From positions 1 to 32,000 of the forward strand of contig JAHEZK010000011.1 in NCBI GenBank assembly GCA_023251115.1: a stretch of DNA of 32,000 bases, in the 5' to 3' direction. The notes under the pieces are model-generated. The model searched no databases and was not told the origin of the DNA. It worked only from the letters and a program-made list of their open reading frames with translations. Positions 4,046 through 31,575 of the stretch are shown in pieces. The translations under genes and the position numbers were made by a program. This DNA comes from Nitrososphaeraceae archaeon. GTDB taxonomy: Archaea; Thermoproteota; Nitrososphaeria; Nitrososphaerales; Nitrososphaeraceae. Position 1 is the first letter of the stretch. The number at the start of each line of letters is the position of its first letter.

Positions 4046-4152
4046 TCTTTCTAACTACCTCTATTAGTTGAACTTACTTCAAACATTCTATCAATAAAAG
4101 CATTTTGGCCGTATTTATTAGAACCGGAAATAAAATTTGTCATGGCTGTAAA

Positions 4153-4460
4153 CTATTGTACTATTAGCTTCCCTGTCATGTATGGATGAACGGTGCAATA
4201 GAATGGATATTGCCCTGGATTAAGGTTGGTAGTCTGAATGTCTGCTGTTGCTCCAGCTTCTATGATGCTTGTATCGAATTGCTTTGCATTATTTGGATCT
4301 GTTGGTCCTGTTCCACTAGTAACTGTATGTGGTAAAGTGTCTTTGTTGGTTACTGTTATTTTGTCCCCTTTCTTTACAGTAATTGTGTCTGGATCAAAGT
4401 CTGGACTTCCCTGTACTGAAGCTCCTTCAAGTATTGTCAGCGGCATTCCAGGTGGACCGG
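4153..4460. repeat. Plastocyanin-module duplication, copy B (pairs with 1921-2228)
   Basis: See copy A. Same length and frame, ending at the conserved GPPG codons. Confidence 0.9.
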
Positions 4461-4947
4461 CTGATTGAACTGGGGCTTGTGCTGGGGCTTGTGCTGTTGC
4501 ATTTTGACCCTCAGCTGCTGCTTCGGCAGTCTGTGGTTCAACAAATAATTTTGCTTTCATAGTTGAATGTCCAAATCCACAATATTCTCTGCATTGGATT
4601 CGAAATTCACCTGGTTGGTCAAATAGATTCCAGACTACATTTACCCTTCCCGGTACTGCGTCCATCAATATCGTATAATCTGGCACATTAAAGTCATGAA
4701 TAACATCCTTTGAAACAAGTTCAAATTTGTATGGAACTCCTTGTTTTACATGAAGCTGGCCTGTCTCCTTTTTACCGTCCTCATGTTCAAAGGTCCAAAA
4801 CCATTGTTGACCTATTACCTTGATTGTTTCTGCTTCCGCTGGAACATGCTCAACTAACCTTTCAACATTCCAAGATTCGGCTCCCACCCACGTAAGCAAA
4901 GCTATAACAACACCAACGTAAACCCATTCGATTGTTGCATGTCCCAT
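4153..4947 (-). CDS. ctaC: Heme-copper oxidase subunit II (CuA cupredoxin) fused to a C-terminal plastocyanin-like domain
   Basis: One N-terminal TM helix. CuA ligands VIHDF ... CREYCGFGHSTM (H, C-x3-C-x3-H-x2-M). Ala/Gln/Pro linker, then a second cupredoxin with T1Cu ligands LPHTVTSG and FYCTVHPYM in the same ORF. Confidence 0.9.
   Translation of the reverse strand: MGHATIEWVYVGVVIALLTWVGAESWNVERLVEHVPAEAETIKVIGQQWFWTFEHEDGKKETGQLHVKQGVPYKFELVSKDVIHDFNVPDYTILMDAVPGRVNVVWNLFDQPGEFRIQCREYCGFGHSTMKAKLFVEPQTAEAAAEGQNATAQAPAQAPVQSAGPPGMPLTILEGASVQGSPDFDPDTITVKKGDKITVTNKDTLPHTVTSGTGPTDPNNAKQFDTSIIEAGATADIQTTNLNPGQYPFYCTVHPYMTGKLIVQ
4470..4493. repeat. 12-bp tandem duplication (ctggggcttgtg x2) in the subunit II linker
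   Basis: Read directly. Encodes AQAPAQAP on the minus strand, between the CuA and plastocyanin domains. Confidence 0.9.
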
Positions 4948-15755: not shown

Positions 15756-15829
15756 GGGGTTGTTGTCTAGCTTGGTATGATGCCAGCCTCGGGCGCTGGA
15801 GGTCGTCGGTTCAAATCCGACCAGCCCCA
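15756..15829 (+). tRNA. tRNA-Pro (anticodon CGG)
   Basis: Manual cloverleaf. Acceptor GGGGUUG/CAGCCCC. Anticodon stem CCAGC/GCUGG with loop CU-CGG-GC (G37). T arm GUCGG-UUCAAAU-CCGAC. Discriminator A. 74 nt. Confidence 0.9.
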
Positions 15830-15858
15830 TGACTCTAGTAGTTCTCTAATTGGGTTCA
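15808..15858 (+). repeat. attL-like direct repeat (3' part of tRNA-Pro plus 29 nt downstream)
   Basis: Core 15818-15858 matches 30047-30087 at 38/41. The extended repeat 15808-15858 matches 30037-30087 at 45/51. Confidence 0.85.
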
Positions 15859-16650
15859 GTTGAAATAAGAGTGAATAAAATGCAGCAACAAAAACAACAA
15901 AGTCAAGAGGTATCTCTTACCAGTGCATATTCCTTATTTGTATATGCTATAAGAACTCAAATAACAAGGGATTACTATCTTAGAAGATTAAGAGCGTTCT
16001 TTGATTTTATCAAATTACTTCCAAATGCAAAGATAGAACATAGATGCAACCATTTTGCTGCAATTGCTATAAAAGATAATGGATGGACATTTAGTAAAAT
16101 TATTGCTTTTTTACAATTTCAAAAAGAAAGAGTGGAAAGAGAAGAAATTACAGCAGCAACACTCTATAACTTTGTAAAAGCACTCAAGTTATTTTGTGAA
16201 ATGTCTGATGTTCCTGTTTCATGGAAAAAAATAACAAGAGGGCTACCAAAAGTCAGAAGGTTTGCTGATGACAGGCCCCCAACTATAGAGGAAATTCGTA
16301 AAATGATTGAATATCCCGATAGAAGAATGAAGCTAATTATATACACTATGGCTTCTTCTGGAATCAGGCTTTGAGCATGGGATTACTTACGTTGGAAGGA
16401 TGTAGAACGTATTGAAATAATTGCAGTTGCTATGAACTATGATAAAATTTATAGATATTATACCCTTAACAGACAAGAATTAGCACCTGGAGAGGCTCTA
16501 AATCTTTTGAATAATAAGGAACAATTCATTGTATCCTTTGACGGTAAATCATATGAATTGGATGAAAGTTTTTTTAATATTAACTATGGTGACTTATCTA
16601 AAACAAATAGAGATATAATTGATCGCTTGCCGAATAGGCATAAAAATTAA
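15850..16650 (+). pseudogene. Tyrosine recombinase/integrase, decayed
   Basis: N-terminal SAM-like region and the first catalytic-Arg box (IIYTMASSGIRL-stop-AWDYLRWKDV). In-frame TGA at 16372-16374 sits where related integrases carry Gly. The same frame continues to 16650 but contains no HxxR or catalytic Tyr segment. Probable original start is ATG 15880. Confidence 0.7.
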
Positions 16651-16829
16651 TGTTTTATCTTTGTCTAATGAGATTGATATTCATTCGATAAGAAATTATT
16701 AATTATAATCTTGTATTTTGGATTCTATAATCTGAAAATTGTTCATTAGTATCATTATGCGTTGCAGTTGAATAAATCCAAGATATGTTGATACTAGCCT
16801 TTGTACTTCACATTCTTGGTATTCCAGAA

Positions 16830-16858
16830 TGTGGATGTTCTCTCTCTATATGAGATTG
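16830..16858 (+). repeat. 29-bp perfect direct repeat, left copy (pairs with 27953-27981)
   Basis: tgtggatgttctctctctatatgagattg read at both sites. Here it is non-genic: the VDVLSLYEI frame stops after 5 more codons. Confidence 0.9.
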
Positions 16859-16982
16859 CTAGGATATATTAAAAGACATTCATAGCTAAAGCTTTAACTC
16901 ATTAAGTTGACAGATCCGTCTATGCATCAGAAAACTTTTATACAATACTTTCATAGGCCTAATAAAAGGGTTCATTTCAAGA

Positions 16983-18845
16983 ATGCCAGATATTAGATGG
17001 CGAGAAAAAAGTGTGTTCATAGCAATTTTGACGATCATATCATTATCACCTTTAAGTTATTCTTTTTTTTCTTATGCACAAAACAGTACAAATACAAATA
17101 GTATAGGCATAAATATTACTGACGTGTCAGTAACATCTGAAACACTGATAAAGACTGGTAACGATACGATCAAAGTCTTTGTAGCAAAAAAAGTTATTAC
17201 AATGGATCCTGGTTGGCCTAATGCCACAGCTATCGCTGTGAAAGATGGCAAGATATTGTCTGTTGGATCTTTACAGGATCTCAAGCCTTGGCTGGATCAC
17301 TATCCTCATGTGATTATTGATACTTTTAAGGATAAGGTGATAATGCCCGGATTCATTGAACCGCATGGACATCCTATCATTGGAGGTATCACACTTACTC
17401 GGCCTCTGCTGGTTTATCGTGACACTTTGAATCCATACGGACCAGCGTTTGATGGCTTGAAATCCAAATCAGAAGCAATAGTCAAACTTCAGGAATACGA
17501 AGCAAATATGGGACAGAATGGGACAAATCAGACCCTTTTTGTATGGGGATATGACCCAACTACGATGGGTGAAAGATTATCAGTTGATGACTTAGATTCA
17601 GTCTCAAAAGATCGTCCTATCGTGGTTTGGGATGCTTCAGAACATGAAGCATATGCAAACACTGCAGCAATGAAGAAACACAATATAACAAGCGAATCAA
17701 CCAGGATAAATGGAGTAGGAGCAGACGCAAATGGTGAACCTAATGGTCAATTCATTGGAGCCAAGGCCGCATCCTTGATACTTGCGCCAGAGATTGAGGA
17801 TATAGCTACACCAGAGAGTTTGCAAGAGATCTTGCATTATATTGTGGATCTTAGCCGCCAAGGAGGAATTACCACAACCTCAGAACTTGCTATGGGTATA
17901 GTTCTCGGCGTCGAAGAAGAAGCAAAAATCCTTAAACAATTTTTTGATGATCCCACAACTCCAATGCGTGTTGTAGCAGTGGTAGATGGATTGTCAGCTG
18001 GTATTGAAAAGAAAAGTGAAGCCATCAACTATTCGCTTTCTCTACATAATAATAATAGTAGTGATAAGACTATATTTAATGGAGTCAAGTTTTTTAGCGA
18101 TGATTCATTTCTGAGCCTTAAAATGCAACCAAACTACCCAGGATATATTGATAATCATACTGGATTATGGAATAATGCTCCTGGTGAAGACTTCGTTAAA
18201 CTCATCTTACCATGGTGGCTTTCGGGATTCCAAATTCATATCCACACAAATGGGGGTGCTTCTCAGGATTCGGTGTTGCATTCCCTGGCTGCATTACAGA
18301 ATGAGAAGCCTAGGTTTGATCACAGATTTACGTTTGATCACTACGGTTTATCAACGTCTTCTCAGGCCTTAAAATTAAAGGCTCTGGGTGCAGTTGCTAG
18401 TGTGAATCCATATTATGTATATCTTCGTGGTGAGCTAAACGAAAAGTTTATTGGAACAGATGTTGCTGAAAAGGCCGCAAGATTAGGAACCCTTACCAAT
18501 GCTAGCGTTCCAACTACCTTACACTCTGATACTCCTATTGGAGAACCTAGACCATTGGAATGGGTTTGGATTGCAGTGAACAGGTTGGGGCTCTCCGGAG
18601 AAGTGTTGGCTCCAAGTGAAAGAGTAACAGTCGATGACGCACTCAAGATGATCACAGTTAATGCTGCTTTCGCATTAGGAATGGATGACAAAATCGGAAG
18701 TATAGAACCTGGCAAGTTTGCTGACTTTGTGATCTTAGATCAAGATCCGTACGAAGTTCAGCCAGGGAAGATTAGAGATATTGGAGTATGGGGCACAGTT
18801 GTAGAAGGGCAGATCTATCCTGCTAGCGAAATTAAACCTCAATAA
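16983..18845 (+). CDS. Secreted Amidohydro_3 (YtcJ/AepA-like) metal-dependent hydrolase, paralog 1
   Basis: 620 aa. Signal-like N-terminus MPDIRWREKSVFIAILTIISLSPLSYSFFSYA. PGFIEPHGHP (HxH metal motif). C-terminal GSIEPGKFADFVILDQDP typical of the amidohydrolase 3 family. Confidence 0.85.
   Translation: MPDIRWREKSVFIAILTIISLSPLSYSFFSYAQNSTNTNSIGINITDVSVTSETLIKTGNDTIKVFVAKKVITMDPGWPNATAIAVKDGKILSVGSLQDLKPWLDHYPHVIIDTFKDKVIMPGFIEPHGHPIIGGITLTRPLLVYRDTLNPYGPAFDGLKSKSEAIVKLQEYEANMGQNGTNQTLFVWGYDPTTMGERLSVDDLDSVSKDRPIVVWDASEHEAYANTAAMKKHNITSESTRINGVGADANGEPNGQFIGAKAASLILAPEIEDIATPESLQEILHYIVDLSRQGGITTTSELAMGIVLGVEEEAKILKQFFDDPTTPMRVVAVVDGLSAGIEKKSEAINYSLSLHNNNSSDKTIFNGVKFFSDDSFLSLKMQPNYPGYIDNHTGLWNNAPGEDFVKLILPWWLSGFQIHIHTNGGASQDSVLHSLAALQNEKPRFDHRFTFDHYGLSTSSQALKLKALGAVASVNPYYVYLRGELNEKFIGTDVAEKAARLGTLTNASVPTTLHSDTPIGEPRPLEWVWIAVNRLGLSGEVLAPSERVTVDDALKMITVNAAFALGMDDKIGSIEPGKFADFVILDQDPYEVQPGKIRDIGVWGTVVEGQIYPASEIKPQ
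17063..17070 (+). other. T8 homopolymer in the signal-peptide codons of paralog 1
   Basis: Counted directly. The homologous tract in paralog 2 (22404-22410) is T7. Confidence 0.9.
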
Positions 18846-19134
18846 AAATGTTTTTTCTCGACTCGGAATAGCTACTAAGCGTTAACAAATGAACTATCAT
18901 AAATTAATCGATAGAGGCTTAACGACAAGAGATATAGAGAATAGTATTTATCACAGATATGGGCAGAATCCGAATGTTGTGCATAAATTTCACGTACTCA
19001 GGTTTCGTTAACAAGAGATAGAAAGAGTAGGACATATTTTCGAGATAGTAGTATCTGTCAAATAGATTGCAACAAAAAATATTAATGACAAAATCGGGTT
19101 GGTTATTTTTATTTGCTCTCAAACCTAAATCGGT

Positions 19135-21042
19135 TTAGTTAATAGTATGTATAGGTTCAATTTGACCTTTAAATCCCGGTGCTAGCATACCGGATAAAGA
19201 GATAGTTTGTATGTTGGTTGAGTTTAGTTCGGGGAACACATTGGCCACAGCTGTTGCAAATTGGGCTCCTCTTGGGATTATGACCCCCACATCTTCAGCA
19301 AATTTCCCATAAACCTCCTTCATAGTTTGTACAATATCTGGATGCAAATCTGCCACGTTTATGCTTTCTCCAAGGTCAACTGCGAGATCATACAATTTCC
19401 ATTCATTTGGCTTATCTGATGAGTCATGAATCCCTTTCCAATCACCCATGATCACAGTTGTCTGGTTAAAGAGTTCTGCTGGGACAGGTTCATTGTCTGC
19501 ATAGACATTCTGAGCTGTTCCATTAAGAACTGCTTTAAAAGATTTTCCCATAGGTGGATGAATGTCACGTCCTTGATAGGTTGTTGGATATGAAACATCT
19601 GCGAAGTCTAAAATTGTAGGGGTTATATCTGTCACATATACAAAACTTTTGATAATGTTGTTTGTAGCGTTTGAAGTTGGCAGCGGTTCCTTGATTAGAA
19701 ACGGTACTCTTGTTCCACCTTCATAAAAGCTTCCCTTGAAGCCTGAAAATGGGGCGACTGCCACATAAGTACCCCATGAACCGTAATTGAAGTCGGAATC
19801 TGCGTTACCAAGATTTGAAAAACTATTATTTATTCCAGCTATAAATTGTGCCGCTTGAGTTGCGTTGTATGCGCTACTATATTTGAATTTAGCCAGTTCC
19901 ACTGGCTCGCTTGTACCGTTGTCAGAAGTAAATAGAATTAATGTATTATCATATTGTCCAGTATCTTTTAGATATTGTATCACTCTACCCACATTCTTGT
20001 CCATATCCCCTATCATGGCTGCATGTACTGCCAATACTTTTGCTGCATAGTCTTTTTGATCATTGGTAAGACTCTCCCATGATTGATTTGGAGGAAGTCT
20101 TTGCGGGATGGTCATATTCGAAGGCCATATTCCTAATTGTTTCTGCTTTTCAAATATCTGCTCTCTTATCTTATCCCATCCTATGCTTCTATAGATTTTA
20201 TAGTATTTTTCTATGTTATCTGGTGGGGCCTGGAATGGCGTGTGGGCGACCTGAAAAGAAAGGTACGCAAAGAAGGGCTTATCATCTGCCTCTGTTTTTT
20301 TAAGGTATTCTAATATTTTGTCGGTATACAGGTCAGCCGCGTAAACTGTATTATTGCCAGGTCTTGGAACAACAGTATCATTTTCTACAAATGTTACTGT
20401 ATAGCCAGGTACGTATGTGTTATTATTGAAGTGATTAGCTCCATCCTGCAACAGAGTAAAGACATTCTCAAAACCTCTATCATAAGGCTTCGTTCCTGGC
20501 TGACCTTCTTTTCCAGATCCGGAGAGATGCCACTTGCCAGAAAGCATAGTGTTGTATCCTGCATCCCTTAATAGTTCTGCTACTGTTACTACTCTGTCGT
20601 TTATGTAAGTTTCATAACCCGGTTGGCCCACTTGATTTTCAGCTATTAGCTCATACATTGTTCCTATTCCACCTATATGCCAGTCAACGCCCGTGAGCAA
20701 TGACAGCCTGGCGGGAGAACACGTAGGAGCAGTATGGTAGTTAGTTAAAACTTTTCCTTCTTTTGCTAAAGTGTCTAAGTTTGGAGTTGAAATCTCACTG
20801 CCAAATGATCCAATGTCTGCGTATCCAAAGTCATCACCCAGTATTACCAAAAAGTTTGGGCGCTGACTCTGTGCTGAAGCGCCAGAAGTTTCAGAAAAAG
20901 CTTGATAAAAATTTGAATTTAAGGGTAATGATGACGCAGATATTGATGATATAATTGGTGGTAACCCAATGATTCCGCTAAGAATCATCCCCAACATCAC
21001 GAAGATAGAGAAACCCCGATTAATTTTCACTTCAACTGCCAT
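19135..21042 (-). CDS. Cys-type (formylglycine-dependent) sulfatase, secreted
   Basis: 635 aa. N-terminal hydrophobic segment. LVILGDDFGYADIGSFGSE and APTCSPARLSLLTG (C-x-P-x-R FGly motif followed by LTG). Confidence 0.9.
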   Translation of the reverse strand: MAVEVKINRGFSIFVMLGMILSGIIGLPPIISSISASSLPLNSNFYQAFSETSGASAQSQRPNFLVILGDDFGYADIGSFGSEISTPNLDTLAKEGKVLTNYHTAPTCSPARLSLLTGVDWHIGGIGTMYELIAENQVGQPGYETYINDRVVTVAELLRDAGYNTMLSGKWHLSGSGKEGQPGTKPYDRGFENVFTLLQDGANHFNNNTYVPGYTVTFVENDTVVPRPGNNTVYAADLYTDKILEYLKKTEADDKPFFAYLSFQVAHTPFQAPPDNIEKYYKIYRSIGWDKIREQIFEKQKQLGIWPSNMTIPQRLPPNQSWESLTNDQKDYAAKVLAVHAAMIGDMDKNVGRVIQYLKDTGQYDNTLILFTSDNGTSEPVELAKFKYSSAYNATQAAQFIAGINNSFSNLGNADSDFNYGSWGTYVAVAPFSGFKGSFYEGGTRVPFLIKEPLPTSNATNNIIKSFVYVTDITPTILDFADVSYPTTYQGRDIHPPMGKSFKAVLNGTAQNVYADNEPVPAELFNQTTVIMGDWKGIHDSSDKPNEWKLYDLAVDLGESINVADLHPDIVQTMKEVYGKFAEDVGVIIPRGAQFATAVANVFPELNSTNIQTISLSGMLAPGFKGQIEPIHTIN

Positions 21043-21321
21043 TACGTGATGTTTATAATAAAGATTTCTGGAATGATAGTAATCATCATAATTCTCTGCA
21101 TTCTTGCTGAATATTTCAGCTACTGATAATTGGGAATATTATGGAAGAATTGGTCTGTTGTTTCTAAGGCTATATTCATGAGCCAAAAAAGTTTGTTCTC
21201 TTGTTAGGTCCCAATTTAAATCATCTATGCTTTTATACAGTGCCACAAATACATAGATTTTGCTCAAGGAGGAGGTCTGTGGCTATTGACTCATTTATTA
21301 GAAATATCCTGATGATTATCA

Positions 21322-21960
21322 CTATATGCCCCTTCTTACATCCTTGCTGTATGCAATAACCATAATCAAACTTGTGGAACAAGTGGCCCAGTCAATAATT
21401 GGACGACCATATAATAAGTTTGATTTAAAGTCATTCTCGATATTAAAGTAAATTAAGGCCTGTACGATGAACAAGGCAAGAAAAATGATCCTAATCCAGT
21501 GAGACGCAATCCAGCCTCTCATGACTTTTAGGTGCGATTGTGGATCTGTTCTTGGTCTGGTAACAGACTTGTACAATGATATGTCATATACTATATCCCA
21601 GAGAAGAATAAATACAAAAATCATAGGGAGTAACATAATGATAATAGAAAAAAATCCTACGGAATTAACTAGATACCAATAAAGAAATAGTATGACTAAA
21701 TCTATAAAAAATATATATGGATTAATATCTGGCCGTTTCTTTATGATGAAATGGTACCCAATCCAACCTGCCACTACTGTCACATATACTAGAAGAAGTG
21801 TAAAAGCTTCGAACTTAAACGTATTAGGATCAAACAGTATTGCTTTATTATTATTCCAGCTAGTAGCAATGATCATGCCAAAAATAACATCTAGCAGTAA
21901 TTCGTATAATTCTGATGAATTCTTGTCGCTATATTTTTTTGTGTTACTGTCCTCCCGCAT
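21322..21960 (-). CDS. Hypothetical polytopic membrane protein
   Basis: 212 aa, about 5-6 hydrophobic helices, no recognisable motif. Confidence 0.5.
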   Translation of the reverse strand: MREDSNTKKYSDKNSSELYELLLDVIFGMIIATSWNNNKAILFDPNTFKFEAFTLLLVYVTVVAGWIGYHFIIKKRPDINPYIFFIDLVILFLYWYLVNSVGFFSIIIMLLPMIFVFILLWDIVYDISLYKSVTRPRTDPQSHLKVMRGWIASHWIRIIFLALFIVQALIYFNIENDFKSNLLYGRPIIDWATCSTSLIMVIAYSKDVRRGI

Positions 21961-22337
21961 CCTGCTTCTGTAGTAATATCGTGCTAGTATATTAGAATAT
22001 TCAGTTTGCAGTACGCTTGGTGCCTCATAGAATGGTGGTACGGTAACCGGCTAAGTAAATGTGTTCCATCTTTACAATTAATCTTATTAAGAAAGCAGAA
22101 ACTCGATATACTTAGAAAAAGGGAACAAACACATCAGCTCCACCTGTCAATCCTCATCTGCAGGATTTAGTTGAAAGAACAAATGCAAGCGCAGCTAGAT
22201 GATCTTGTCTCGTTAAAATAAGATGACTATCTGTTTTATTTGCTTTATTAGATGTCGTACTTACAGACATAGGTAACAAATTCACTTACAGACATAGGCC
22301 TAGTAAAAGGGTTCATTTCAAGAATGCCAAATATTAG

Positions 22338-24179
22338 ATGGCGAGAAAAAAGCGCGTTCATAGCAATTTTGACGATCATATCATTATCACCTTTGAGTTA
22401 TTCTTTTTTTCTTATGCACAAAACAGTACAAATACAAATAGTACAGGCACAAATATTACTGATGTGTCAGTAACATCTGAAAAACTGATAAAGACTGGTA
22501 AGGATATGATCAAAGTCTTTGTAGCAAAGAAAGTTATTACAATGGATCCTGGTTGGCCTAAAGGTACTGCGATTGCGGTAAAAGATGGAAAGATAGTTTC
22601 TGTTGGATCACTAGAAGATCTCAAGCCTTGGCTGGATCACTATCCTCATGAAATTATTGATACTTTTAAAGATAATATAATAATGCCCGGATTCATTGAA
22701 CCACACGGACATCTTATAATTGGAAGTATAACTATTACTCGTCCCCTGCTGAGTTATTTTGATATTTTAAATCCTTATGGTCCATCTTTTCATGGTCTCA
22801 AGACCAATGCCGAAGTTCTGGCCCAACTACGCGAATATGATAAAAGTATGGATTCAAACCAAACTCTTCTGGCATGGGGATATGATCCTAGTGCGATAGG
22901 TGAAAAAAGCTTGACGGTTCATGATCTAGATGGAATATCCATGGTTCGTCCTATCATCGTCTGGGACGCTTCAGAACATAAGGCTTTTACAAACACTGCA
23001 GCAATGAAGAAACACAATATAACAAGCGAATCAACCAGGATAAATGGAGTAGGAACAGACGCAAATGGTCAACCTAATGGTCAGTTCATTGGAGTCAAGG
23101 CAGCATCCCTTATTCTTGCCCCAGAATTAAAGAATCTACTTACACCTGAAAGTTTGCAAAAAACCACACGTTACCTTGTTGACTTGAGCCGCCAAGGAGG
23201 AATTACCACAAGTTCAGAACTTGCCTTAGGTGTTAGTTCTGGGAGTGTGGAATTTGAATCAAAATTTTTAAAAAAATTTTTTGATAACTCTTCAACTCCA
23301 ATGCGCGTTGTAGCAGTGGTCGACGGATTGTCAGTTCAAAAAGAAAAGAAGGATAACGCCATCGATTATACTCTTTCTTTACATAATAATAGTAGTGATA
23401 AGACTATATTTAATGGAGTCAAGTTCTTCAATGATGATGCGTTAATAGGCCAGTCAATGCAGGTAAGATATCCAGGATATATTGACGGTCATACGGGATT
23501 GTGGAATAATGCTCCTGGTGAGGGCTTTGTTAAACTCATGCTACCATGGTGGCTTTCAGGATTCCAGATCCATGTTCACAGTAGCGGGAGCGCTGCTCAG
23601 GAGTCACTCCTAAATGTGTTGGCTGCTTTACAGGATGAGAAACCTAGATTTGATCACAGATTTACATTTGATCACTATGGTTTGTCTACTCCTGCTCAGG
23701 CTTTGAAACTAAAGGCTCTTGGAGGAGTTGCAAGTGTTAATCCATATTTTGTGTACTATTATGGCGAGATAGATGAAAAGTATATAGGAACAGATGTTGC
23801 ACATACCGCTTCAAGATTAGGAACCCTTACCAATGCTAGCGTTCCAACTACTTTGCATTCGGATACTCCGTTGGGAAAGCCGAGGCCACTTGAATGGGTG
23901 TGGATTGCAGTAAATAGGTTTGGACAGTCTGGAAACGTCCTTGCGCCTAGTGAACGGGTATCAGTAGATGAGGCTTTTAAAATGATCACAGTTAATGCTG
24001 CTTACGCATTAGGAATGGATGACAAAATCGGAAGTATAGAACCTGGCAAGTTTGCTGACTTTGTGATCTTAGATCAAGATCCGTACGAAGTTCAGCCAGG
24101 GAAGATTAGAGATATTGGAGTATGGGGCACAGTTGTAGAAGGGCAGATCTATCCTGCCAGTGAAATAAAACTTCGATGA
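22338..24179 (+). CDS. Amidohydro_3 hydrolase, paralog 2 (signal peptide out of frame)
   Basis: 613 aa, collinear with paralog 1 (PGFIEPHGHL; identical GSIEPGKFADFVILDQDP). The homologous signal-peptide ATG is at 22324 in another frame (50-codon ORF 22324-22473) because the T tract is one nt shorter. The in-frame N-terminus MARKKRVHSNFDDHIIITFE is not signal-like. Confidence 0.75.
   Translation: MARKKRVHSNFDDHIIITFELFFFSYAQNSTNTNSTGTNITDVSVTSEKLIKTGKDMIKVFVAKKVITMDPGWPKGTAIAVKDGKIVSVGSLEDLKPWLDHYPHEIIDTFKDNIIMPGFIEPHGHLIIGSITITRPLLSYFDILNPYGPSFHGLKTNAEVLAQLREYDKSMDSNQTLLAWGYDPSAIGEKSLTVHDLDGISMVRPIIVWDASEHKAFTNTAAMKKHNITSESTRINGVGTDANGQPNGQFIGVKAASLILAPELKNLLTPESLQKTTRYLVDLSRQGGITTSSELALGVSSGSVEFESKFLKKFFDNSSTPMRVVAVVDGLSVQKEKKDNAIDYTLSLHNNSSDKTIFNGVKFFNDDALIGQSMQVRYPGYIDGHTGLWNNAPGEGFVKLMLPWWLSGFQIHVHSSGSAAQESLLNVLAALQDEKPRFDHRFTFDHYGLSTPAQALKLKALGGVASVNPYFVYYYGEIDEKYIGTDVAHTASRLGTLTNASVPTTLHSDTPLGKPRPLEWVWIAVNRFGQSGNVLAPSERVSVDEAFKMITVNAAYALGMDDKIGSIEPGKFADFVILDQDPYEVQPGKIRDIGVWGTVVEGQIYPASEIKLR
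22404..22410 (+). other. T7 homopolymer: frameshift site relative to paralog 1
   Basis: 80 nt separate the upstream ATG from the tract in both copies. The only length difference in that stretch is T8 versus T7. Confidence 0.9.
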
Positions 24180-24318
24180 AAATATCTTTTTGTCGGATTG
24201 ACGGAATGTAGAAGGGCGGTAACAACCAGAGACGATGCTAGAATAAGAATAAAGGTGAATCTTAAGAGATTCAACAATTAGCTATAAGTGCCCTCAGATC
24301 CTAACTAAATCATCTAGA

Positions 24319-24891
24319 ATGTCAGATCCAAGTTGGCTTATCGAATATTACAGGAGATTACAAGGAGATTATCAATCTTCCTTTGTACGAAGGGATAATG
24401 TAACTAATCGGACATATACTTTGCTTTTAGCTTTCTTAGCAGTTTATTTTGGTTTTTTTAGTGCAAATCTTCTTGCTCAACCGTTATGGAGATATTCCTT
24501 CGTCGTAGGAATCTTAGTTATAATGATTAGGTTTTTCTTTCAATCAATGATCATATATGGCTTCATACTAAGATATAGATACTTGAAGATGCGAATCGAA
24601 AGTCACTGGCTAGAAGACGGCCCTACTGTAGATGAAATTAAGAAGGATATGCTTAGGTATGATCATGGTGGGATTTTTCCTCCAACGGGTAGAAGTCGCC
24701 TATGGGATGGACAGATTCGTTCTGGCTTTATTCTCAACCTCATTATTCCGCTCATTCTCATTGCGAACGAATTGAACTTGGTCTCAGGAGCGACTCCAAA
24801 TATCTATTTGTGGATAATGATATTCCTAATAATTTATGTAATCACGGAAGTAATTAATTTCATAACCTTTGATCGAGTGAAAAAATCGTGA
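24319..24891 (+). CDS. Hypothetical membrane protein
   Basis: 190 aa. Soluble N-terminal ~35 aa, two central helices, a basic loop and two C-terminal helices. No family recognised. Confidence 0.5.
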   Translation: MSDPSWLIEYYRRLQGDYQSSFVRRDNVTNRTYTLLLAFLAVYFGFFSANLLAQPLWRYSFVVGILVIMIRFFFQSMIIYGFILRYRYLKMRIESHWLEDGPTVDEIKKDMLRYDHGGIFPPTGRSRLWDGQIRSGFILNLIIPLILIANELNLVSGATPNIYLWIMIFLIIYVITEVINFITFDRVKKS

Positions 24892-25968
24892 TGTTGCAAT
24901 CTTTTAGAAGCAGTCAAGACATATTAATTCTTTTTACACTCTCTGATGCTCAATTCATCGATAGAGTCTATCTTAAATTCAAATTTTGGTTCTTGCATAT
25001 CCGATCTCAACCTTGTAATTCATTAAGAATGCTAAATTGATTCATGCGTGTTTACTATCTCTATTCCTGATAAATGTGTTCTATAGCCTTGCTAAAACGA
25101 TCATGCAAGTCTGGGCTGGTTTACAACATATGCAAGTATCCCTGAGGTCTCTCAAGAGTCCTTTATATCACACATAAACTGATAACTGCCTTCCCTAGCT
25201 CTAACGCGGTAATAGCGGAAAAAGTATTCTTGATATACTCTTGCTTTTGTGCCTTTACCATCTCATCTTGTTGTTTACTCCAACTTCCTCTGGTATATTC
25301 AATTGAAAGTCGTCAAGTCCTTCTTCAAGTTCTTTTTTTGTTACGTCTGACTTCTATGTGTCGATTATAGCTTCATCTATTTCATCTAATAATTCTTGTT
25401 TTGAAACTTTTGGCCCTATCTCCAACCGGTTATTGTACAATATGTAAAAACTTATAATAGATTTACAGGACCTATAGCATCCAGAATTATTTCATTTAAT
25501 AGATAAAATCTCAAAAAAACAAAATGCTGATTCGCTTTAAGGAAAAAAGGTTCTCAAATTGGCCATGTAGTATTCATACAGTTAAAAGGTCATAACATCA
25601 TGTATGGATCAGTCGAGTCTTGAGATAGTAGGGAAATAGCCCGAATAATACAGGCAAAGTGCAGAATCAAGTTCTTCTATGGGCAAAGAATCAGGATCAG
25701 AAGATAACATTAACCCTGTGCTGGATCCAAATACCATGGCAAATAAGGCTTTTTGAATATTTTGGATAACCCTTAACTGCATAAAAAATATCTCGAGATT
25801 TCAAGTGGTCTATAATCTGTTCCTCTGGAAGGACATGGTGTTCGATTAGTCATAAATAACAATAAAACAAAATGAGTTGGTACTTTGACATACAAGCTCA
25901 AGTAGCAAGATGTCGATATCTCTTCCATTATGATTATTTCGAAAGAAAATAGAGCATGGATAGCATAG

Positions 25969-27510
25969 TCACCAGAGCACAGTTCCATTAAAAGGATCCA
26001 CCAACACTTTTTCTGCATAGTGACCTGAAGTAAAGTCAAACAGGTTTAAAATTGGACCAGCAATTGAGTCAAAAGATTGATCTCCGATTTGCCCAAGATT
26101 CCAATTATCTTCTATAAATCGCAGTATTGAAGCTTGGTCTATTATTTGGTGATCAACATAATTGATCTTTGCAAACGGCGAGATCACTAGAAATGGAAGA
26201 CGGGGACCATAGCCACACCGGTCGTCGTAGCGATCAGGAGCGGGTTTGCCGCATAAACCTAGACCAAGCAATCTATCATTTTCAGGGTCATCAGACTGGC
26301 TCACTATTGGAGGCATAACATGATCATACCAGCCGTCAGAATCATCATACGCTATTATGACTGCTGTGTGATTCCATTCAGGAAGGTTCTGAAGACGGTT
26401 TATAGTTTCTACGAGAAACGTCTGTTCGTCTAATGGGTTAGAATACCCTGCGTGTCCATCTTGGAAGGCTGCAGCCTTTAGGAAGCTCACAGCAGGGAGG
26501 TTCCCCAATTCAGCAGCGTCCCAGAAATCTATTAGATCATATTGATGATTTGCTTGGTCATTACTACCGATCATATGAACTGAGGTTGGAGCCAAATGGT
26601 GTGGATTAGCTGTTGTTTTGTAAAATTGAAATGGTTCATGGTGGGGAAGATAATCAAATAAAGATGCGTTCTCGTAGCTTCCATGAGTTGAACCGCAGAT
26701 TGGAGTTCTATTAGCAGTCCAATTAGTTGGTTTGAATCCACCTTGGAACCATCCCCAGGTAACATTAGCTCTGTTCAACAGATCTCCTACGTTAGTTCCA
26801 GCAAGAGAAACTAGTGGATATGATTTTGTGGCTGGGTTAAAACAATCATCATATAAAGGATTGGGATCACTTATCATGGTACCGTTTACTATAACATTTA
26901 TCACAGATCCATGAGAAAGCTTTTCAACATTAGTGGGTTCCACACCATGTGTTTGTCCTGAAACCAAGTTAATATGTCCGGGTGTTGAAGGACCAAAAAT
27001 AGAACCAAAGAAGCTGTCACTCATGGCATAGTGTTGTGCGTAGTTCCAGAGAGCAGTCACGGTATTTCCGTCAAAATAACCCATGGTTATGATTGGATCG
27101 CAACCTTTTGAAATTTGTTTGTTTGATTGAACAAATTTGTCCATGATACCACCATTATAAGCTTCTTGAAGCCTGCTATATTCATGATCGTTGTCACAAG
27201 TAGACGTTTGAGATCTAGGGATGCGAAACGGGTTGACCAGATTAGGATTATATGTCAAAAGCGTGCCAGAGAGGCCATTCACTGATGGTGTATTTGGTAA
27301 CTGACTGAAAGATGGTTCACCGGGTGGATTAACGGCATTAGGGTAAGTACCAAAGTAATGATCAAAAGAAACATTTTCCTGATATATAATAATTAAATGA
27401 TCTATCGGAGTAGCTATTTTAGCAATGGCATAAGTATCTATCAATGAAGTGCCAGACATCAAAATGAGCAATGAAAACAATAAGAATTTGACTCCTGTCA
27501 TTAGTTCCAC
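25969..27510 (-). CDS. Secreted phosphoesterase family protein (acid phosphatase AcpA / phospholipase C-like)
   Basis: 513 aa. Signal-like MTGVKFLLFSLLILMSGTSLIDTYAIA. HLIIIYQENVSFDHYFGTYP is the N-terminal signature of the PF04185-type phosphoesterases. Length is close to AcpA-type enzymes. Listed start is GTG 27510; ATG at 27501. Confidence 0.85.
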   Translation of the reverse strand: MELMTGVKFLLFSLLILMSGTSLIDTYAIAKIATPIDHLIIIYQENVSFDHYFGTYPNAVNPPGEPSFSQLPNTPSVNGLSGTLLTYNPNLVNPFRIPRSQTSTCDNDHEYSRLQEAYNGGIMDKFVQSNKQISKGCDPIITMGYFDGNTVTALWNYAQHYAMSDSFFGSIFGPSTPGHINLVSGQTHGVEPTNVEKLSHGSVINVIVNGTMISDPNPLYDDCFNPATKSYPLVSLAGTNVGDLLNRANVTWGWFQGGFKPTNWTANRTPICGSTHGSYENASLFDYLPHHEPFQFYKTTANPHHLAPTSVHMIGSNDQANHQYDLIDFWDAAELGNLPAVSFLKAAAFQDGHAGYSNPLDEQTFLVETINRLQNLPEWNHTAVIIAYDDSDGWYDHVMPPIVSQSDDPENDRLLGLGLCGKPAPDRYDDRCGYGPRLPFLVISPFAKINYVDHQIIDQASILRFIEDNWNLGQIGDQSFDSIAGPILNLFDFTSGHYAEKVLVDPFNGTVLW

Positions 27511-27941
27511 TAGTTTACTTCTCAGTTTAAAGATATTAAGTTGTCTGATGCGTAGACAGGGCTTGTTAACTTAAGAACCATCCCCTCCGATCATTTCAAC
27601 TAACCCACCAAACTTGATGTATCCAATTTTGTTATGCATGAATTCAAACAATTGAATCCACTTCTATACATGTACAGATCACACTGTTTTTTTAATACAC
27701 GTTCCAAGAACAGTTCTGTTGATAGGTTCTATCGCTATCCAGAGTCATGCTACATCATTACCAATCTGTATCATGGTTTCATCTATTGCAAACACACTCA
27801 CTCTCTTTCTAACATAGATTCTATTAGGCATAAATCGTAGAACGTACTTCTAAACAGTAACATGACTACTTTACATATGGTTGTAATGCCGTCGATGTAT
27901 TTCGAAAGCTCAACCCTAGAAAGTATAAGTAAAGTGCATAT

Positions 27942-28331
27942 ATGATATACAGTGTGGATGTTCTCTCTCTATATGAGATTGATAGTTTCGATCGCTTCAA
28001 GAGTAAAGCGGAGCAGGAGATTCCGAATTTACCTGAAAATCTTCAGTCAGCTGCCAAAGAGGCAATTAATGATAAAACTTTTAAGAAGGAATACCTATCC
28101 CTAATAAATGCATATAAACTACTAGCAAAGGATCCCGAAGTAAAAATCTCCAGTGGTGATGACTTTTACTCAGATAACACAGTGAAAAAAGTGGCGGATA
28201 ATTTGAAGACTAGAGGGTTGGACGTCGTTTATAAAAAAGATGGTGACAAAAAGGAATTTCGTCTAAAAATTGATAGCAGTTTCCTTAAGGCATTAGGAGC
28301 ATTAATATCAAAAATTGCAGGACTATTCTAA
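27942..28331 (+). CDS. Hypothetical protein
   Basis: 129 aa, helical/charged, no motif. Its codons 4-13 are the right copy of the 29-bp repeat. Confidence 0.5.
   Translation: MIYSVDVLSLYEIDSFDRFKSKAEQEIPNLPENLQSAAKEAINDKTFKKEYLSLINAYKLLAKDPEVKISSGDDFYSDNTVKKVADNLKTRGLDVVYKKDGDKKEFRLKIDSSFLKALGALISKIAGLF
27953..27981 (+). repeat. 29-bp perfect direct repeat, right copy (pairs with 16830-16858)
   Basis: Identical 29-mer, here inside the 5' end of the 129-aa ORF. Confidence 0.9.
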
Positions 28332-28461
28332 GATTATGCGTGACATCTTTTTCTCGTCTTAGATTAAGTAAAATATTGGCTTCGTAAGCGGAAACATTAA
28401 CTTCAAGCAATTTAATAATATACTATATGAAGTCACACAAAATAGGAACACGAACTGAGGC

Positions 28462-28481
28462 TTCAAATCCGACAAACCCCA
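28462..28481 (+). repeat. Degenerate internal copy of the tRNA-Pro 3' end (att-like)
   Basis: ttcaaatccgacaaacccca versus tRNA-Pro 15810-15829 ttcaaatccgaccagcccca: 18/20, same orientation. Confidence 0.65.
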
Positions 28482-28523
28482 GATAACTATGATTTTAGAG
28501 TCTTGTGATGATAAGTTGGTATA

Positions 28524-28862
28524 CTATCGAGGCCCATAAAATATTATGACTGCTCCTAAAACTGCTACCATAGAGCCTATTATTTCAAATTTATCTGGTC
28601 TCTTTTTGTCTACCACCATTCCCCATAATATTGAAGAAATAATAAAAAATCCACCATACGCGGCATATACCCTTCCAAAATTTGAAGGCTGTAATGTAGG
28701 AATTATTCCGTAAGTAAAGAGTATGATTCCCCCAACTAAACCAAAGATTATTTTCTTTTTCTGTCTTATCCATAACCATACTAAATATCCTCCACCAATT
28801 TCAGCTAGTGCTGCTAAGAGAAACAGTCCTACTGAAGTAATAGAAGTAGTAATTTCATTCAT
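28524..28862 (-). CDS. YnfA/UPF0060 family small membrane protein (SMR-like), paralog B
   Basis: 112 aa, 4 TM. AEIGGGYLVWLWIRQKK and GRVYAAYGGFFI parallel E. coli YnfA (CEIIGCFLPWLWLKR; GRVYAAYGGVYV). Confidence 0.8.
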   Translation of the reverse strand: MNEITTSITSVGLFLLAALAEIGGGYLVWLWIRQKKKIIFGLVGGIILFTYGIIPTLQPSNFGRVYAAYGGFFIISSILWGMVVDKKRPDKFEIIGSMVAVLGAVIIFYGPR

Positions 28863-29242
28863 TTACGTTCACTTGATATCAACTTGTTTTTTCTGGGCAT
28901 ATAGAAAATAATCATGACTCCAATTAGTGATATAATGGCACCAATTATGTCAAACATATCTGGTCTTATTCCCTGTATAACCCAACCCCATAACAAAGCC
29001 ATTACAATGAAGATGCCCCCATAAGCCGAGTATATCCTATGAAAATGATGCGGTTGGAATGTTGGAATTATGCCATAGGTGAAAAGAACAAAACCGCCCA
29101 GGACACCAAGTATCCAACTCATGTCTTCTCTAAGCCAAAGCCAAACTAGGTAACCACCACCAATCTCACAAAATCCGGCTGAAAGGAAGAAGAATACTGA
29201 GATTAGTATTTTGTTCCAGCTAATTCTATCTCTATTTACCAA
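28859..29242 (-). CDS. YnfA/UPF0060 family small membrane protein (SMR-like), paralog A
   Basis: 127 aa, 4 TM. CEIGGGYLVWLWLRED and HRIYSAYGGIFIV. Its stop overlaps the start of paralog B by 4 nt. Confidence 0.8.
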   Translation of the reverse strand: MVNRDRISWNKILISVFFFLSAGFCEIGGGYLVWLWLREDMSWILGVLGGFVLFTYGIIPTFQPHHFHRIYSAYGGIFIVMALLWGWVIQGIRPDMFDIIGAIISLIGVMIIFYMPRKNKLISSERK

Positions 29243-29855
29243 CAGTCATTCCTTTGATGTATATTTTGCCAAATAGAATATACAATGAAATAGCAATTAT
29301 CGCGATTTGAACCCCCGCTACAATAGCATCCAATAAACCAATAGGTTCTGTTCCTAGACTAGAAATCCCTACCGTTCTAGAAGTAAAATAAATTCCTAAT
29401 AATACTAATGAACCGACTATGGCTATTATGTAAGGAACTTTACTGTTCCTTTTATCTAGTATCATCCATAATCCTATTGCAGCATAGCCAATTCCAGCAA
29501 TAATTGAAAGTGGAAATTCTAAAACCCTGCGTTGATTTTCAGATGTTTCTTGATGTAAGGTTTCTTCTGTTTCTTTGAGTTCGAGGTGTTTAGATTCGTT
29601 GGTGTTCTGTTCTGGTGCCTGCTCTTCTTGTAGACGCTGTACCGACGATTCACCAGATTCATTGTGAATTTCTAGTGTTTTCTCTTGATTCTCATTGTGG
29701 GCAGACTCCGTAGTTTCATCCTCTTGTCCTTCAACTAGCTGCAATCCGTGAGCTTCACTACTTTCAATACTTTCACCAAATATTGCAACTAAAAAGTATA
29801 GAGAGGATGTTGAGAACATCAAGAATGTTATAATGTAGACTAAAAATGATTTCAA
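29232..29855 (-). CDS. Membrane protein with acidic Glu/Gln/His-rich extracytoplasmic region
   Basis: 207 aa. N-terminal TM helix, an ~85-aa low-complexity stretch (EAHGLQLVEGQEDETTESAHNENQEKTLEIHNESGE...), then three TM helices. Overlaps the downstream ynfA-like gene by 11 nt. Confidence 0.55.
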   Translation of the reverse strand: MKSFLVYIITFLMFSTSSLYFLVAIFGESIESSEAHGLQLVEGQEDETTESAHNENQEKTLEIHNESGESSVQRLQEEQAPEQNTNESKHLELKETEETLHQETSENQRRVLEFPLSIIAGIGYAAIGLWMILDKRNSKVPYIIAIVGSLVLLGIYFTSRTVGISSLGTEPIGLLDAIVAGVQIAIIAISLYILFGKIYIKGMTVGK

Positions 29856-30036
29856 CTAACGTGAATTACTAGGCTTTATTCATAAACATTATGAAAAATC
29901 AAAATACCAAGGCGCGGTAGAATCCTATTATAGGAAGGATACTAGTCACAACGGCTCCAAACCTATGAATTAAAACATCGGTGTTCATTTGTCATAAATA
30001 ACATTTGATATTTGAATCTAAAAATCATGTCAATTT

Positions 30037-30087
30037 TGGTTCACAAACGACCAGCCCCATGCCTTTAGTAGTTCTCTAATTGGATTC
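30037..30087 (+). repeat. attR-like direct repeat
   Basis: ggttcacaaacgaccagccccatgcctttagtagttctctaattggattca. See attL for identities. Confidence 0.85.
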
Positions 30088-30104
30088 ATATTGTAAACAA
30101 TGTG

Positions 30105-30120
30105 CATCCGACCAGCCCCA
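30105..30120 (+). repeat. Second right-hand copy of the tRNA-Pro 3' end
   Basis: atccgaccagccccat is identical to 15815-15830. It is followed directly by tgggtt, which in attL occurs 20 nt further downstream. Confidence 0.8.
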
Positions 30121-30219
30121 TTGGGTTATTAGTTCCGCAATTTTAATCGTATGTTAAATAAAAAAGAATTGAATCGCTAATTTTATGACTAACTTTATGA
30201 CGCTGTGTCTTTCTTATTT

Positions 30220-31077: not shown

Positions 31078-31575
31078 AACTTTGTAATTAACTCCAAGTA
31101 ATATTGTAAATAAGAATCAGACTACGAGTTTTATTGTCCTATCCTAATATTAGCAGACCTCACTTATCCGCAAGGTTCAAATCCCGCCGGTCTAATGACC
31201 TTCAAGTTTCGTTTATGTGATTCTTATTTTTAGATAACTTCAATTTATTATCAAGAACTATAACTCAAAAGTTGATATATCAAGAAGGTTAGTATAGCTA
31301 TAATCTTATTAATGGTACAATGAATCAATAATTTTTTAATATTAGGAATTTCACGCGTCTACGGACTCTGCTCTACGAAGTCTATTTTTAACTCAACTGC
31401 ATTCATTCAAATTGCAGGTGATTTAGCTTATTGATATTAATATTAGTAAAGGCAATCTATGCCCAAATCAGGTTAAGTTATGACCATCAGTTGACTTATA
31501 ATATGCAGTTTCCGGAAAACACTTTACTAACGATAGAAATCAGCTAGTCAAAATTTGTGTATAAATTAAGACTAT

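Follow-up and report, generated by a model that had tools for sequence, protein, structure and literature searches.

Most integrated elements described in Thaumarchaeota are 'cryptic integrated elements', a class with a median size of 17 kb that is defined by an integrase alone, and the integrated elements of this group carry auxiliary metabolic genes, good examples being those for multicopper oxidases and AmoC (Krupovic et al. 2019, PMC6563490). Here, we describe a stretch of 32,000 nucleotides from a Nitrososphaeraceae archaeon (GenBank assembly GCA_023251115.1, contig JAHEZK010000011.1, positions 1 to 32,000 of the forward strand; hereafter the window), in which an island at a tRNA-Pro(CGG) gene holds the genes of two paralogous amidohydrolases (AH1 and AH2), an AtsA-like sulfatase and an AcpA-type phosphoesterase (AcpA). 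We consider it likely that the island, at 15830-30088, is a decayed and now immobile cryptic integrated element that was built in at least two steps and whose main cargo is four separately transcribed exported hydrolases. It resembles the described elements in its size (14.3 kb), its integration at a tRNA gene, the position of a tyrosine-recombinase gene by the att site, its flanking direct repeats, its lack of viral or conjugative hallmark genes and its carriage of accessory metabolic genes. It differs from them in that its integrase is an N-terminal stump and the element is fixed, in its tandem att remnants, and in a cargo of sulfatase, amidohydrolase and phosphatase, of which a text search found no mention in the main text of PMC6563490.

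The cargo enzymes also have described counterparts. The sulfatase aligns end-to-end with AtsA of Pseudomonas aeruginosa (1HDH), an S1 formylglycine sulfatase, and keeps its CSPAR motif and metal and catalytic residues, but the window protein is archaeal, begins with a hydrophobic N-terminal extension of 58 aa and has no maturation enzyme in the window. The phosphoesterase likewise aligns end-to-end with AcpA of Francisella tularensis (2D1G), which is also an exported enzyme, and retains the ENxSFDHYFG, GPSTPG and YDDSDG motifs, the difference being a 19-residue insertion (approximately residues 409-427) in the window protein. With the YtcJ-like (COG1574) Pyrococcus proteins 3ICJ and 3IGH, the amidohydrolase shares a TIM-barrel metallohydrolase fold and the HxH...K...H...H...D set of residues; identity is 21%, these structures have no assigned function and so are silent on substrate, and the window enzyme further differs in being exported-looking and duplicated. 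The enzyme families, the type of island and the type of integration site are all already known, the set of genes is not a conserved unit, and the locus does not constitute a new system.

The island at tRNA-Pro(CGG)

The left edge of the island lies exactly at the 3' end of the tRNA-Pro(CGG) gene, one of two tRNA genes in the window (the other being tRNA-Arg), and a 51-nt direct repeat that contains this 3' end recurs at the right edge (15808-15858 and 30038-30088; 45 of 51 positions, or 88%, identical; self-BLAST E 1.2e-11). Directly after the tRNA comes an open reading frame (ORF) of 174 codons that ends at an in-frame stop and matches the NCBIfam XerA profile over positions 14-128 of 263 (E 9.6e-07) and, weakly, a PHROG integrase (E 0.002), with no match among PDB sequences. 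An exhaustive search of a library of 1.8 billion proteins returned 1,796 relatives of this stump. Full-length relatives have 380-470 aa, and two of them give sub-threshold PF00589 matches across the catalytic domain. Because the alignment is confined to their first ~170 residues, the window retains only the N-terminal ~170 residues, or 40%, of a divergent tyrosine recombinase of ~420 aa, the catalytic domain being gone. The closest relatives of the stump (P0368-P0517) are mostly short, at 80-250 aa; truncated copies may be common in this recombinase family, or these may merely be fragments at contig ends.

Comparison with other members of the family places the hydrolases outside the core genome. 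The upstream gene order is kept in 13 related Nitrososphaeraceae contigs (L001-L012 and L018), with flanking core proteins up to 91-98% identical in L001-L004, and nucleotide similarity to these relatives ends at 15830/15831 in all except L009, L011 and L012, where it continues into what is left of an integrase gene or into a short stretch of att sequence. None of the 13 has the hydrolases at the tRNA-Pro site, and the best database matches of the hydrolases, the window's own sequences excepted, reach only 66-72% identity. An earlier reading of the window from sequence alone (hereafter the sequence-only reading) had placed the genes in an acquired mobile element, and both the mobile-element setting, with its tRNA-Pro edge, att-like repeats and integrase remnant, and the acquired, non-core status of the cargo are borne out.

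The same site is occupied by other genes in the relatives. L011 and L012 have an integrase remnant there that is 81% identical in nucleotide sequence to that of the window, and L009 has a more distant one. Cargo at the site consists of an exported-looking GH5-family protein, a ferritin and LigD in L004, of a cation-efflux protein (CDF) and a GSDH in L011, and of a Vgb-lyase-like protein in L009. Large enzymes are not peculiar to the window: the tRNA-Pro islands of the relatives encode a GH5 cellulase-family protein (L004, 14304-15965), a Vgb-lyase-like beta-propeller (L009, 17322-19040) and the GSDH (L011, 12551-14077), at least the first two of which have an N-terminal hydrophobic segment and hence look exported. 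From such sequence features, the tRNA-Pro site seems to gather extracytoplasmic enzymes across the clade.

The window has a GC content of ~35%, its left half consists of core genes, as judged by ORF calls and domain scans, and a genome scan with the FAD oxidoreductase encoded there returned 18 contigs. As nearly all of these belong to Nitrososphaeraceae or Nitrososphaerales metagenome-assembled genomes (MAGs), the host is a low-GC, soil-type ammonia-oxidising archaeon.

Catalytic families and probable export of the cargo enzymes

All four ORFs stand at the coordinates and belong to the families given in the sequence-only reading, with matches to PF07969 (twice), PF00884 and PF04185. The sulfatase matches PF00884 with an E of 2.6e-51 and contains TCSPARLSLLTG. 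Its alignment with AtsA (E 5.3e-112) spans residues 59-588, the 58 residues ahead of it holding the hydrophobic segment, and brings the CSPAR motif together with DD, KxH (here KWH), H, DN and K residues into register with what we take to be D13/D14, K113/H115, H211, D317/N318 and K375 of AtsA. The phosphoesterase, taken as the ORF at 25969-27510, contains QENVSFDHYFG and matches PF04185 with an E of 9.7e-84 and 282 bits (cut-off 23), and it matches Francisella AcpA over 485 residues (28-512; E 4.8e-148). Its scores fall below both relevant NCBIfam cut-offs, at 167 against 363 bits for acid_phos_Burk and 154 against 580 bits for PC_PLC, and the protein is thus best described, on its sequence, as a member of the PF04185 family whose specificity as a phosphatase or a phospholipase C is not settled by equivalog scores. 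Family and motif are as first proposed for this gene; the GTG at 27510, with which it had been delimited, is a less likely start than the ATG at 27501 (MTGVKF...). Judged by their conserved residues, both the sulfatase and AcpA look catalytically intact.

The amidohydrolases match PF07969 at closely similar levels, AH1 with an E of 2.7e-55 and 189.1 bits (cut-off 29.7) and AH2, as the ORF 22338-24179, with an E of 6.8e-55 and 187.8 bits. Residues H128, H130, K369, H421, H453, H514 and D516 of AH1 are invariant across 38 homologues, and AH1 also looks catalytically intact, the metal-ligand roles of individual residues in the HxH...K...H...H...D set being inferred. An AlphaFold model of AH1 (pLDDT 85.9) has a fold that matches amidohydrolase structures, the top matches being the uncharacterised 3IGH and 3ICJ (target-normalised TM-score 0.80-0.81), the latter of which is also matched in sequence (E 6.6e-11). 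The nearest characterised structural neighbours include triazine/atrazine hydrolases and molinate hydrolase, at low identity, and no NCBIfam equivalog for an amidohydrolase reaches its cut-off. An attempt to read the substrate from structure gave no assignment, the best matches being uncharacterised proteins. The description of these enzymes as nitrogen-releasing is not supported by matches that lead only to uncharacterised YtcJ-like hydrolases.

Export was judged by a hydropathy heuristic (Kyte-Doolittle, 15-residue mean). Exactly one hydrophobic segment is present in each of the three intact enzymes (AH1, sulfatase and AcpA); it is N-terminal, is preceded by K/R and has a mean of 2.2-2.55, and none of the three has a twin-arginine motif. 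An N-terminal hydrophobic segment is also present in 79-92% of the top 120 homologues of each family, and residues 1-58 of AH1 are unstructured in the AlphaFold model, ahead of the folded enzyme. N-x-S/T sequons number 1.6-1.9 per 100 aa in the hydrolases, as against 0-1 in most cytoplasmic proteins of the window. Taken together, these sequence features suggest that the hydrolases are probably exported, Sec-dependent and N-glycosylated. AH2 as encoded is negative by the same heuristic. The sequence-only reading, which gave AH2 its signal-like segment only ancestrally, holds in this respect: three proteins have the segment, and the fourth has lost it through a frameshift.

Duplication of the amidohydrolase gene and loss of a signal peptide

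AH1 and AH2 are the products of a duplicated 1.9 kb segment (16952-18860 and 22293-24195, 82% nucleotide identity) that comprises the gene with 31 nt upstream and ~15 nt downstream. AH2 matches AH1 through the signal-peptide codons save for a few substitutions, the critical change being in a homopolymer, T8 in AH1 (17060-17067) and T7 in AH2 (22401-22407). Because of the missing T, the ATG at 22324 is no longer in frame with the enzyme, and the start taken by the ORF finder is an ATG in a different frame, at 22338. Restoring one T to AH2 recreates an intact signal peptide, MPNIRWREKSAFIAILTIISLSPLSYSFFSYAQ..., and the proposal that 22324 is the ancestral start of AH2 is correct. The ENA contig ERZ27301951, which has an identical sulfatase, has AH2 called from the position equivalent to 22338, which makes faulty assembly an improbable cause of the frameshift.

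Overall, AH1 and AH2 diverge with a dN/dS of 0.22 and a dS of 0.56, values that point to purifying selection on both copies for most of their divergence. As dS is only 0.086 in the first 40 codons, the comparison suggests a recent 5' gene conversion, along with a very recent frameshift in AH2. A single-base loss has in this way stripped AH2 of its signal peptide in a gene whose enzyme frame is still open and appears to have been under purifying selection.

Origin and assembly of the cargo

Each of the hydrolases has its closest relatives at some distance. The amidohydrolase has a best non-self match of 71%, and its named relatives are exclusively bacterial, at 51-54%. For the sulfatase, the best non-self match is 67%, with named relatives from Nitrososphaeraceae and Nitrososphaerota at 56-65%, and for AcpA it is 72%, with named relatives from Nitrososphaeraceae at 68%. 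A neighbour-joining tree joins AH1 and AH2 as sisters and places them with P0003-P0006, separate from the bacterial sequences that carry names; the GC content is ~39% in the contigs retrieved for P0003 (L019) and P0006 (L043), and L043 has several genes common to Nitrososphaeraceae contigs. The hydrolase genes have a GC content at third codon positions (GC3) of 0.31-0.33, and core genes span 0.23-0.38. A recent bacterial donor was considered and rejected on this host-like GC3 and on the position of the amidohydrolases in the tree; the archaeal amidohydrolase clade may still have come from bacteria in the distant past. Because their GC3 matches that of the host, the simplest reading is that the genes probably came from the accessory pool of the lineage itself, by way of a more distant member of the same family, rather than by recent transfer from bacteria.

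The cargo does not appear to have travelled as a unit. The hydrolase genes form four transcription units of mixed orientation with their own upstream regions, and in a co-occurrence set of 27 homologue-bearing loci from metagenomes and genomes, searched by tblastn with all window proteins, no locus from elsewhere has two of the three families within ~10 kb. Homologues instead occur singly, in unrelated settings: in four other contigs a malic enzyme and a TPP enzyme flank that of AcpA, a conserved context, those of the sulfatase lie beside HemolysinCabind proteins, and those of the amidohydrolase are near a GSDH. Nitrososphaeraceae are rich in AtsA-like sulfatases and in AcpA-like phosphoesterases that have signal peptides. 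The set looks to have been assembled locally, probably by chance accretion. In a Nitrososphaeraceae MAG (L024, 1895-15481), a sulfatase homologue, 59% identical, is found with a sulfite-oxidase-like molybdenum enzyme, a Na/sulfate-type symporter and an alkylsulfatase, which makes this a more convincing cluster for organosulfur scavenging than that of the window.

These comparisons divide what the sequence-only reading had proposed, namely an acquired extracellular package for scavenging organic nutrients, unexpected in such an archaeon. The part that stands is that the hydrolases are exported-looking and sit on an acquired, non-core island. Their unity as a functional package falls with their mixed orientation and with the absence of a second family at all 27 loci, an outcome that the sequence-only reading had itself named as refuting it; nothing points to a donor outside the family, GC3 being host-like and the nearest relatives lying on low-GC contigs; and the enzymes are hardly unexpected where sulfatase and AcpA homologues are common and the context of AcpA is conserved.

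A sole hint of linkage among the hydrolase genes comes from an element of ~40 nt, TTAAGTTRACA...GTCTAYGCATCAGAMAACTT, found upstream of both AH1 and AcpA and followed immediately at both sites by a TATA-like box. Its 20-mer core has only two sites in the window (the AH1 copy and, on the other strand, 27538-27557), with 0 expected by chance, and it is absent from 45 loci fetched from elsewhere. The AH2 duplication starts at -31 and so lacks the element. As both copies stand at promoter distance from a start codon, we favour a duplicated promoter or operator, by which AH1 and AcpA would be co-regulated. The shared motif has no significant secondary structure, and a scan for promoters and terminators, with bacterial models applied to an archaeal host, gave counts at or below those of shuffled controls.

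The two copies are inverted, one at each end of the hydrolase module, and outside them the module is bracketed by a 33-nt direct repeat (16830-16862 and 27953-27985). Since the right copy of this repeat belongs to the 5' end of the 129-aa ORF, the left one is an orphan gene-start fragment, and the repeat may be the scar of an insertion or recombination.

Alternative explanations

Several results weigh against a single integrated element with an active, exported cargo. The window's right flank was found in none of the relatives, and a clean empty site was not recovered, because of which the right boundary is set by the att-like repeat alone. Past the integrase stump, the island has no genes for replication, conjugation or capsid (the one PHROG match being the weak one to an integrase), and scans of IMG/VR with the stump, AH1, the sulfatase and AcpA returned no relatives; a viral or proviral origin was rejected on these same grounds. 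The integrase remnant is shared (81% nucleotide identity) with more distant relatives and is missing from the closest ones, for which reason it may predate the hydrolases, and the cargo may have arrived by other recombination. As for the enzymes, the signal peptides were called by a hydropathy heuristic and not by a trained predictor, and hydropathy cannot distinguish cleaved signals from N-terminal anchors. The sulfatase, in turn, requires a formylglycine-generating enzyme (FGE), and none was found in the 32 kb of the window; nor does a maturation enzyme (FGE or anSME) lie beside the sulfatase homologues in L024 and L042.

The history of the integrase stump is the starting point for a different account, in which the tRNA-Pro region is a hypervariable recombination hot spot, the stump and att repeats are left from old and unrelated integrations, and the module at 16863-27952 came later by homologous or illegitimate recombination, landing beside the 129-aa gene. 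It would explain why the stump is common to L011 and L012 (with a DAO protein ~73% identical to that of the window) and absent from L001-L005, the closest relatives, why the 33-nt repeat exactly brackets the module inside the att-bounded island, why there are several att remnants and why content at the site differs in every relative. We nonetheless regard it as rather unlikely, given that att-like repeats still surround the module and that no second recombinase or transposase is visible within it; the practical conclusion would be the same, the DNA being acquired and accessory in either case. The inverted ~40-nt copies (16899-16937 and 27538-27577) invite a further possibility, that the module is a composite transposon-like unit that moved whole, with these imperfect inverted repeats as its ends. 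Their placement at the module ends, the restriction of the 20-mer core to these two sites and the 33-nt direct repeat outside them would all suit such a unit, but we found no transposase inside the module, by Pfam or in the stop-masked frames of 24892-25968, the direct repeats lie 36 nt and 375 nt from the inverted copies instead of abutting them, and the motif does not occur at the 45 other loci. With both copies at promoter distance from inward-facing start codons and a TATA-like box directly after each, a duplicated promoter or operator fits better, and a transposon-like unit is very improbable.

A last alternative concerns function, and holds that the enzymes serve the cell envelope or detoxification, acting on sulfated or phosphorylated glycans or lipids of the cell's own surface or on xenobiotic amides, their mix of families being coincidental. 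The triazine, atrazine and molinate hydrolases among the low-identity neighbours of the amidohydrolase, the phospholipases C within PF04185 and the two uncharacterised membrane proteins encoded between the enzyme genes are all compatible with it, and a survey of the viruses and mobile elements found in this class of archaea puts transferred sulfatases with glycan metabolism (bioRxiv 10.1101/2025.08.23.671958). The closest characterised relatives are, however, a nutrient-type arylsulfatase, AtsA, and a broad acid phosphatase, AcpA, and the company of the L024 sulfatase homologue (a sulfate-type symporter, a molybdenum oxidoreductase and an alkylsulfatase) suggests sulfur acquisition; we therefore hold an envelope or detoxification role to be distinctly unlikely.

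Possible role in an ammonia oxidiser

In the history that we prefer, that of a decayed cryptic integrated element, the genes would have been gathered piecemeal from the Nitrososphaeraceae accessory pool and not moved as a functional unit. AH1 would have been duplicated in place to give AH2, which would recently have lost export through a 1-nt deletion in its T-run. The enzymes would work on the outer side of the membrane, either in the pseudo-periplasm or in the medium, where the sulfatase and AcpA would release sulfate and phosphate from organic esters and the amidohydrolase would cleave a C-N or related bond, and AH1 and AcpA would perhaps share regulation through their common upstream element of ~40 nt.

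If the enzymes are active and exported, organic matter would supply this soil ammonia oxidiser with sulfate, phosphate and perhaps nitrogen, a capacity that would be strain-variable because it is carried on an island at a tRNA hot spot. More speculatively, the duplicated, exported amidohydrolases could attack an amide or N-acyl compound that is abundant in soil, set ammonia free outside the membrane and so feed ammonia oxidation, as a strain-specific, island-borne trait co-regulated with phosphate scavenging through the AH1/AcpA element. Archaeal ammonia monooxygenase is thought to act on the outer side of the membrane, and the amidohydrolases would then supply the energy substrate of the cell, beyond a mere nutrient. 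We put this forward as an improbable idea.

The island also serves as a concrete example for two wider topics, the large and fluid accessory genomes of Nitrososphaeraceae and the possible use of organic nitrogen by nitrifiers. The latter is of active interest for ammonia-oxidising archaea, as in a 2025 study that deals with other amidohydrolase families and in which the terms 'signal peptide' and 'extracellular' are absent (PMC12625717). Our searches of the literature on ammonia-oxidising archaea found nothing specific on sulfatase, formylglycine or acid phosphatase.

Other features of the window

The coordinates of all features are collected in Table 1.

Table 1. Features of the 32 kb window, with the core genes listed first and the island from left to right
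Feature	Position	Strand	Basis or remark
Core genes of the left half: Fe-alcohol dehydrogenase; haem-copper oxidase subunits I and II with cupredoxins; CtaA; RadA; aminotransferase; DUF790 protein; NUDIX protein; FAD oxidoreductase			
tRNA-Pro(CGG), intact, integration target	15756..15829	+	ARAGORN; Rfam tRNA 58.5 bits
attL-like repeat, last 22 nt of the tRNA and 29 nt beyond	15808..15858	+	direct repeat, self-BLAST
Tyrosine recombinase pseudogene, N-terminal ~40% only	15850..16420	+	in-frame stop 16372-16374; homology gone past ~16420
33-nt repeat, left copy (5' end of ORF 27942-28331)	16830..16862	+	32/33 identical to 27953-27985
Shared upstream element, AH1 copy, then TATA-like box	16899..16937	+	alignment
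AH1, exported-looking YtcJ-like Amidohydro_3 metallohydrolase, 620 aa	16983..18845	+	PF07969
Cys-type S1 arylsulfatase, AtsA-like, exported-looking, 635 aa	19135..21042	-	PF00884
212-aa membrane protein, four predicted transmembrane segments	21322..21960	-	upstream of and co-oriented with sulfatase
AH2, AH1 paralogue, signal-peptide region frameshifted	22324..24179	+	T7 vs T8 at ~22401-22407; called ORF 22338-24179
190-aa membrane protein, four predicted transmembrane segments	24319..24891	+	ORF call
1.08 kb stretch without long ORF	24892..25968	.	only an 88-aa ORF, mostly overlapping the AcpA end; others <=57 aa
AcpA-type phosphoesterase (acid phosphatase/phospholipase C family), 510 aa	25969..27501	-	PF04185; ATG 27501
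Shared upstream element, AcpA copy, then TATA-like box	27538..27577	-	alignment
129-aa ORF	27942..28331	+	first ~44 nt include right copy of 33-nt repeat
Remnant like tRNA-Pro 3' end, 18/20 nt	28462..28481	+	repeat family D7
Distal island segment: two tandem YnfA/UPF0060 genes and 207-aa membrane protein	28524..29855	-	PF02694 E 3.9e-41, 4.8e-39; NCBIfam YnfA
attR-like repeat 30038-30088, then second, weaker remnant 30099-30149	30038..30149	+	repeat search, self-BLAST

The 212-aa, 190-aa and 129-aa proteins have no match in Pfam, NCBIfam or PHROG. Two other assemblies from this population likewise have the 212-aa protein beside the sulfatase, and the idea that it and the 190-aa protein are paralogues was rejected, the two being unrelated on comparison. 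The stretch at 24892-25968 is probably decayed or non-coding; a hidden transposase or integrase was sought there and dismissed, no Pfam family being found in its six stop-masked frames.

The tRNA-like remnant at 28462 is a probable internal att site left by stepwise accretion, and the YnfA/UPF0060 and 207-aa genes form a separate small accreted segment between it and the remnant at 30038. The two YnfA/UPF0060 genes, for small membrane proteins, overlap in tandem at 28524-29242, and the 207-aa protein has an acidic central region. Further to the right, 31174-31195 (GGTTCAAATCCCGCCGGTCTAA) resembles the T-arm and acceptor 3' end of another tRNA, in a place where neither ARAGORN nor Rfam calls one; it may be a further att remnant, and the variable region would then perhaps reach past 30149.

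Among the core genes, a 312-nt direct repeat, 85% identical (1920-2231 and 4152-4463), joins the C-terminal cupredoxin parts of the ORF at 1921-2565 and of the COX2-like ORF at 4153-4947, and represents paralogous cupredoxin domains, one on each side of COX1.

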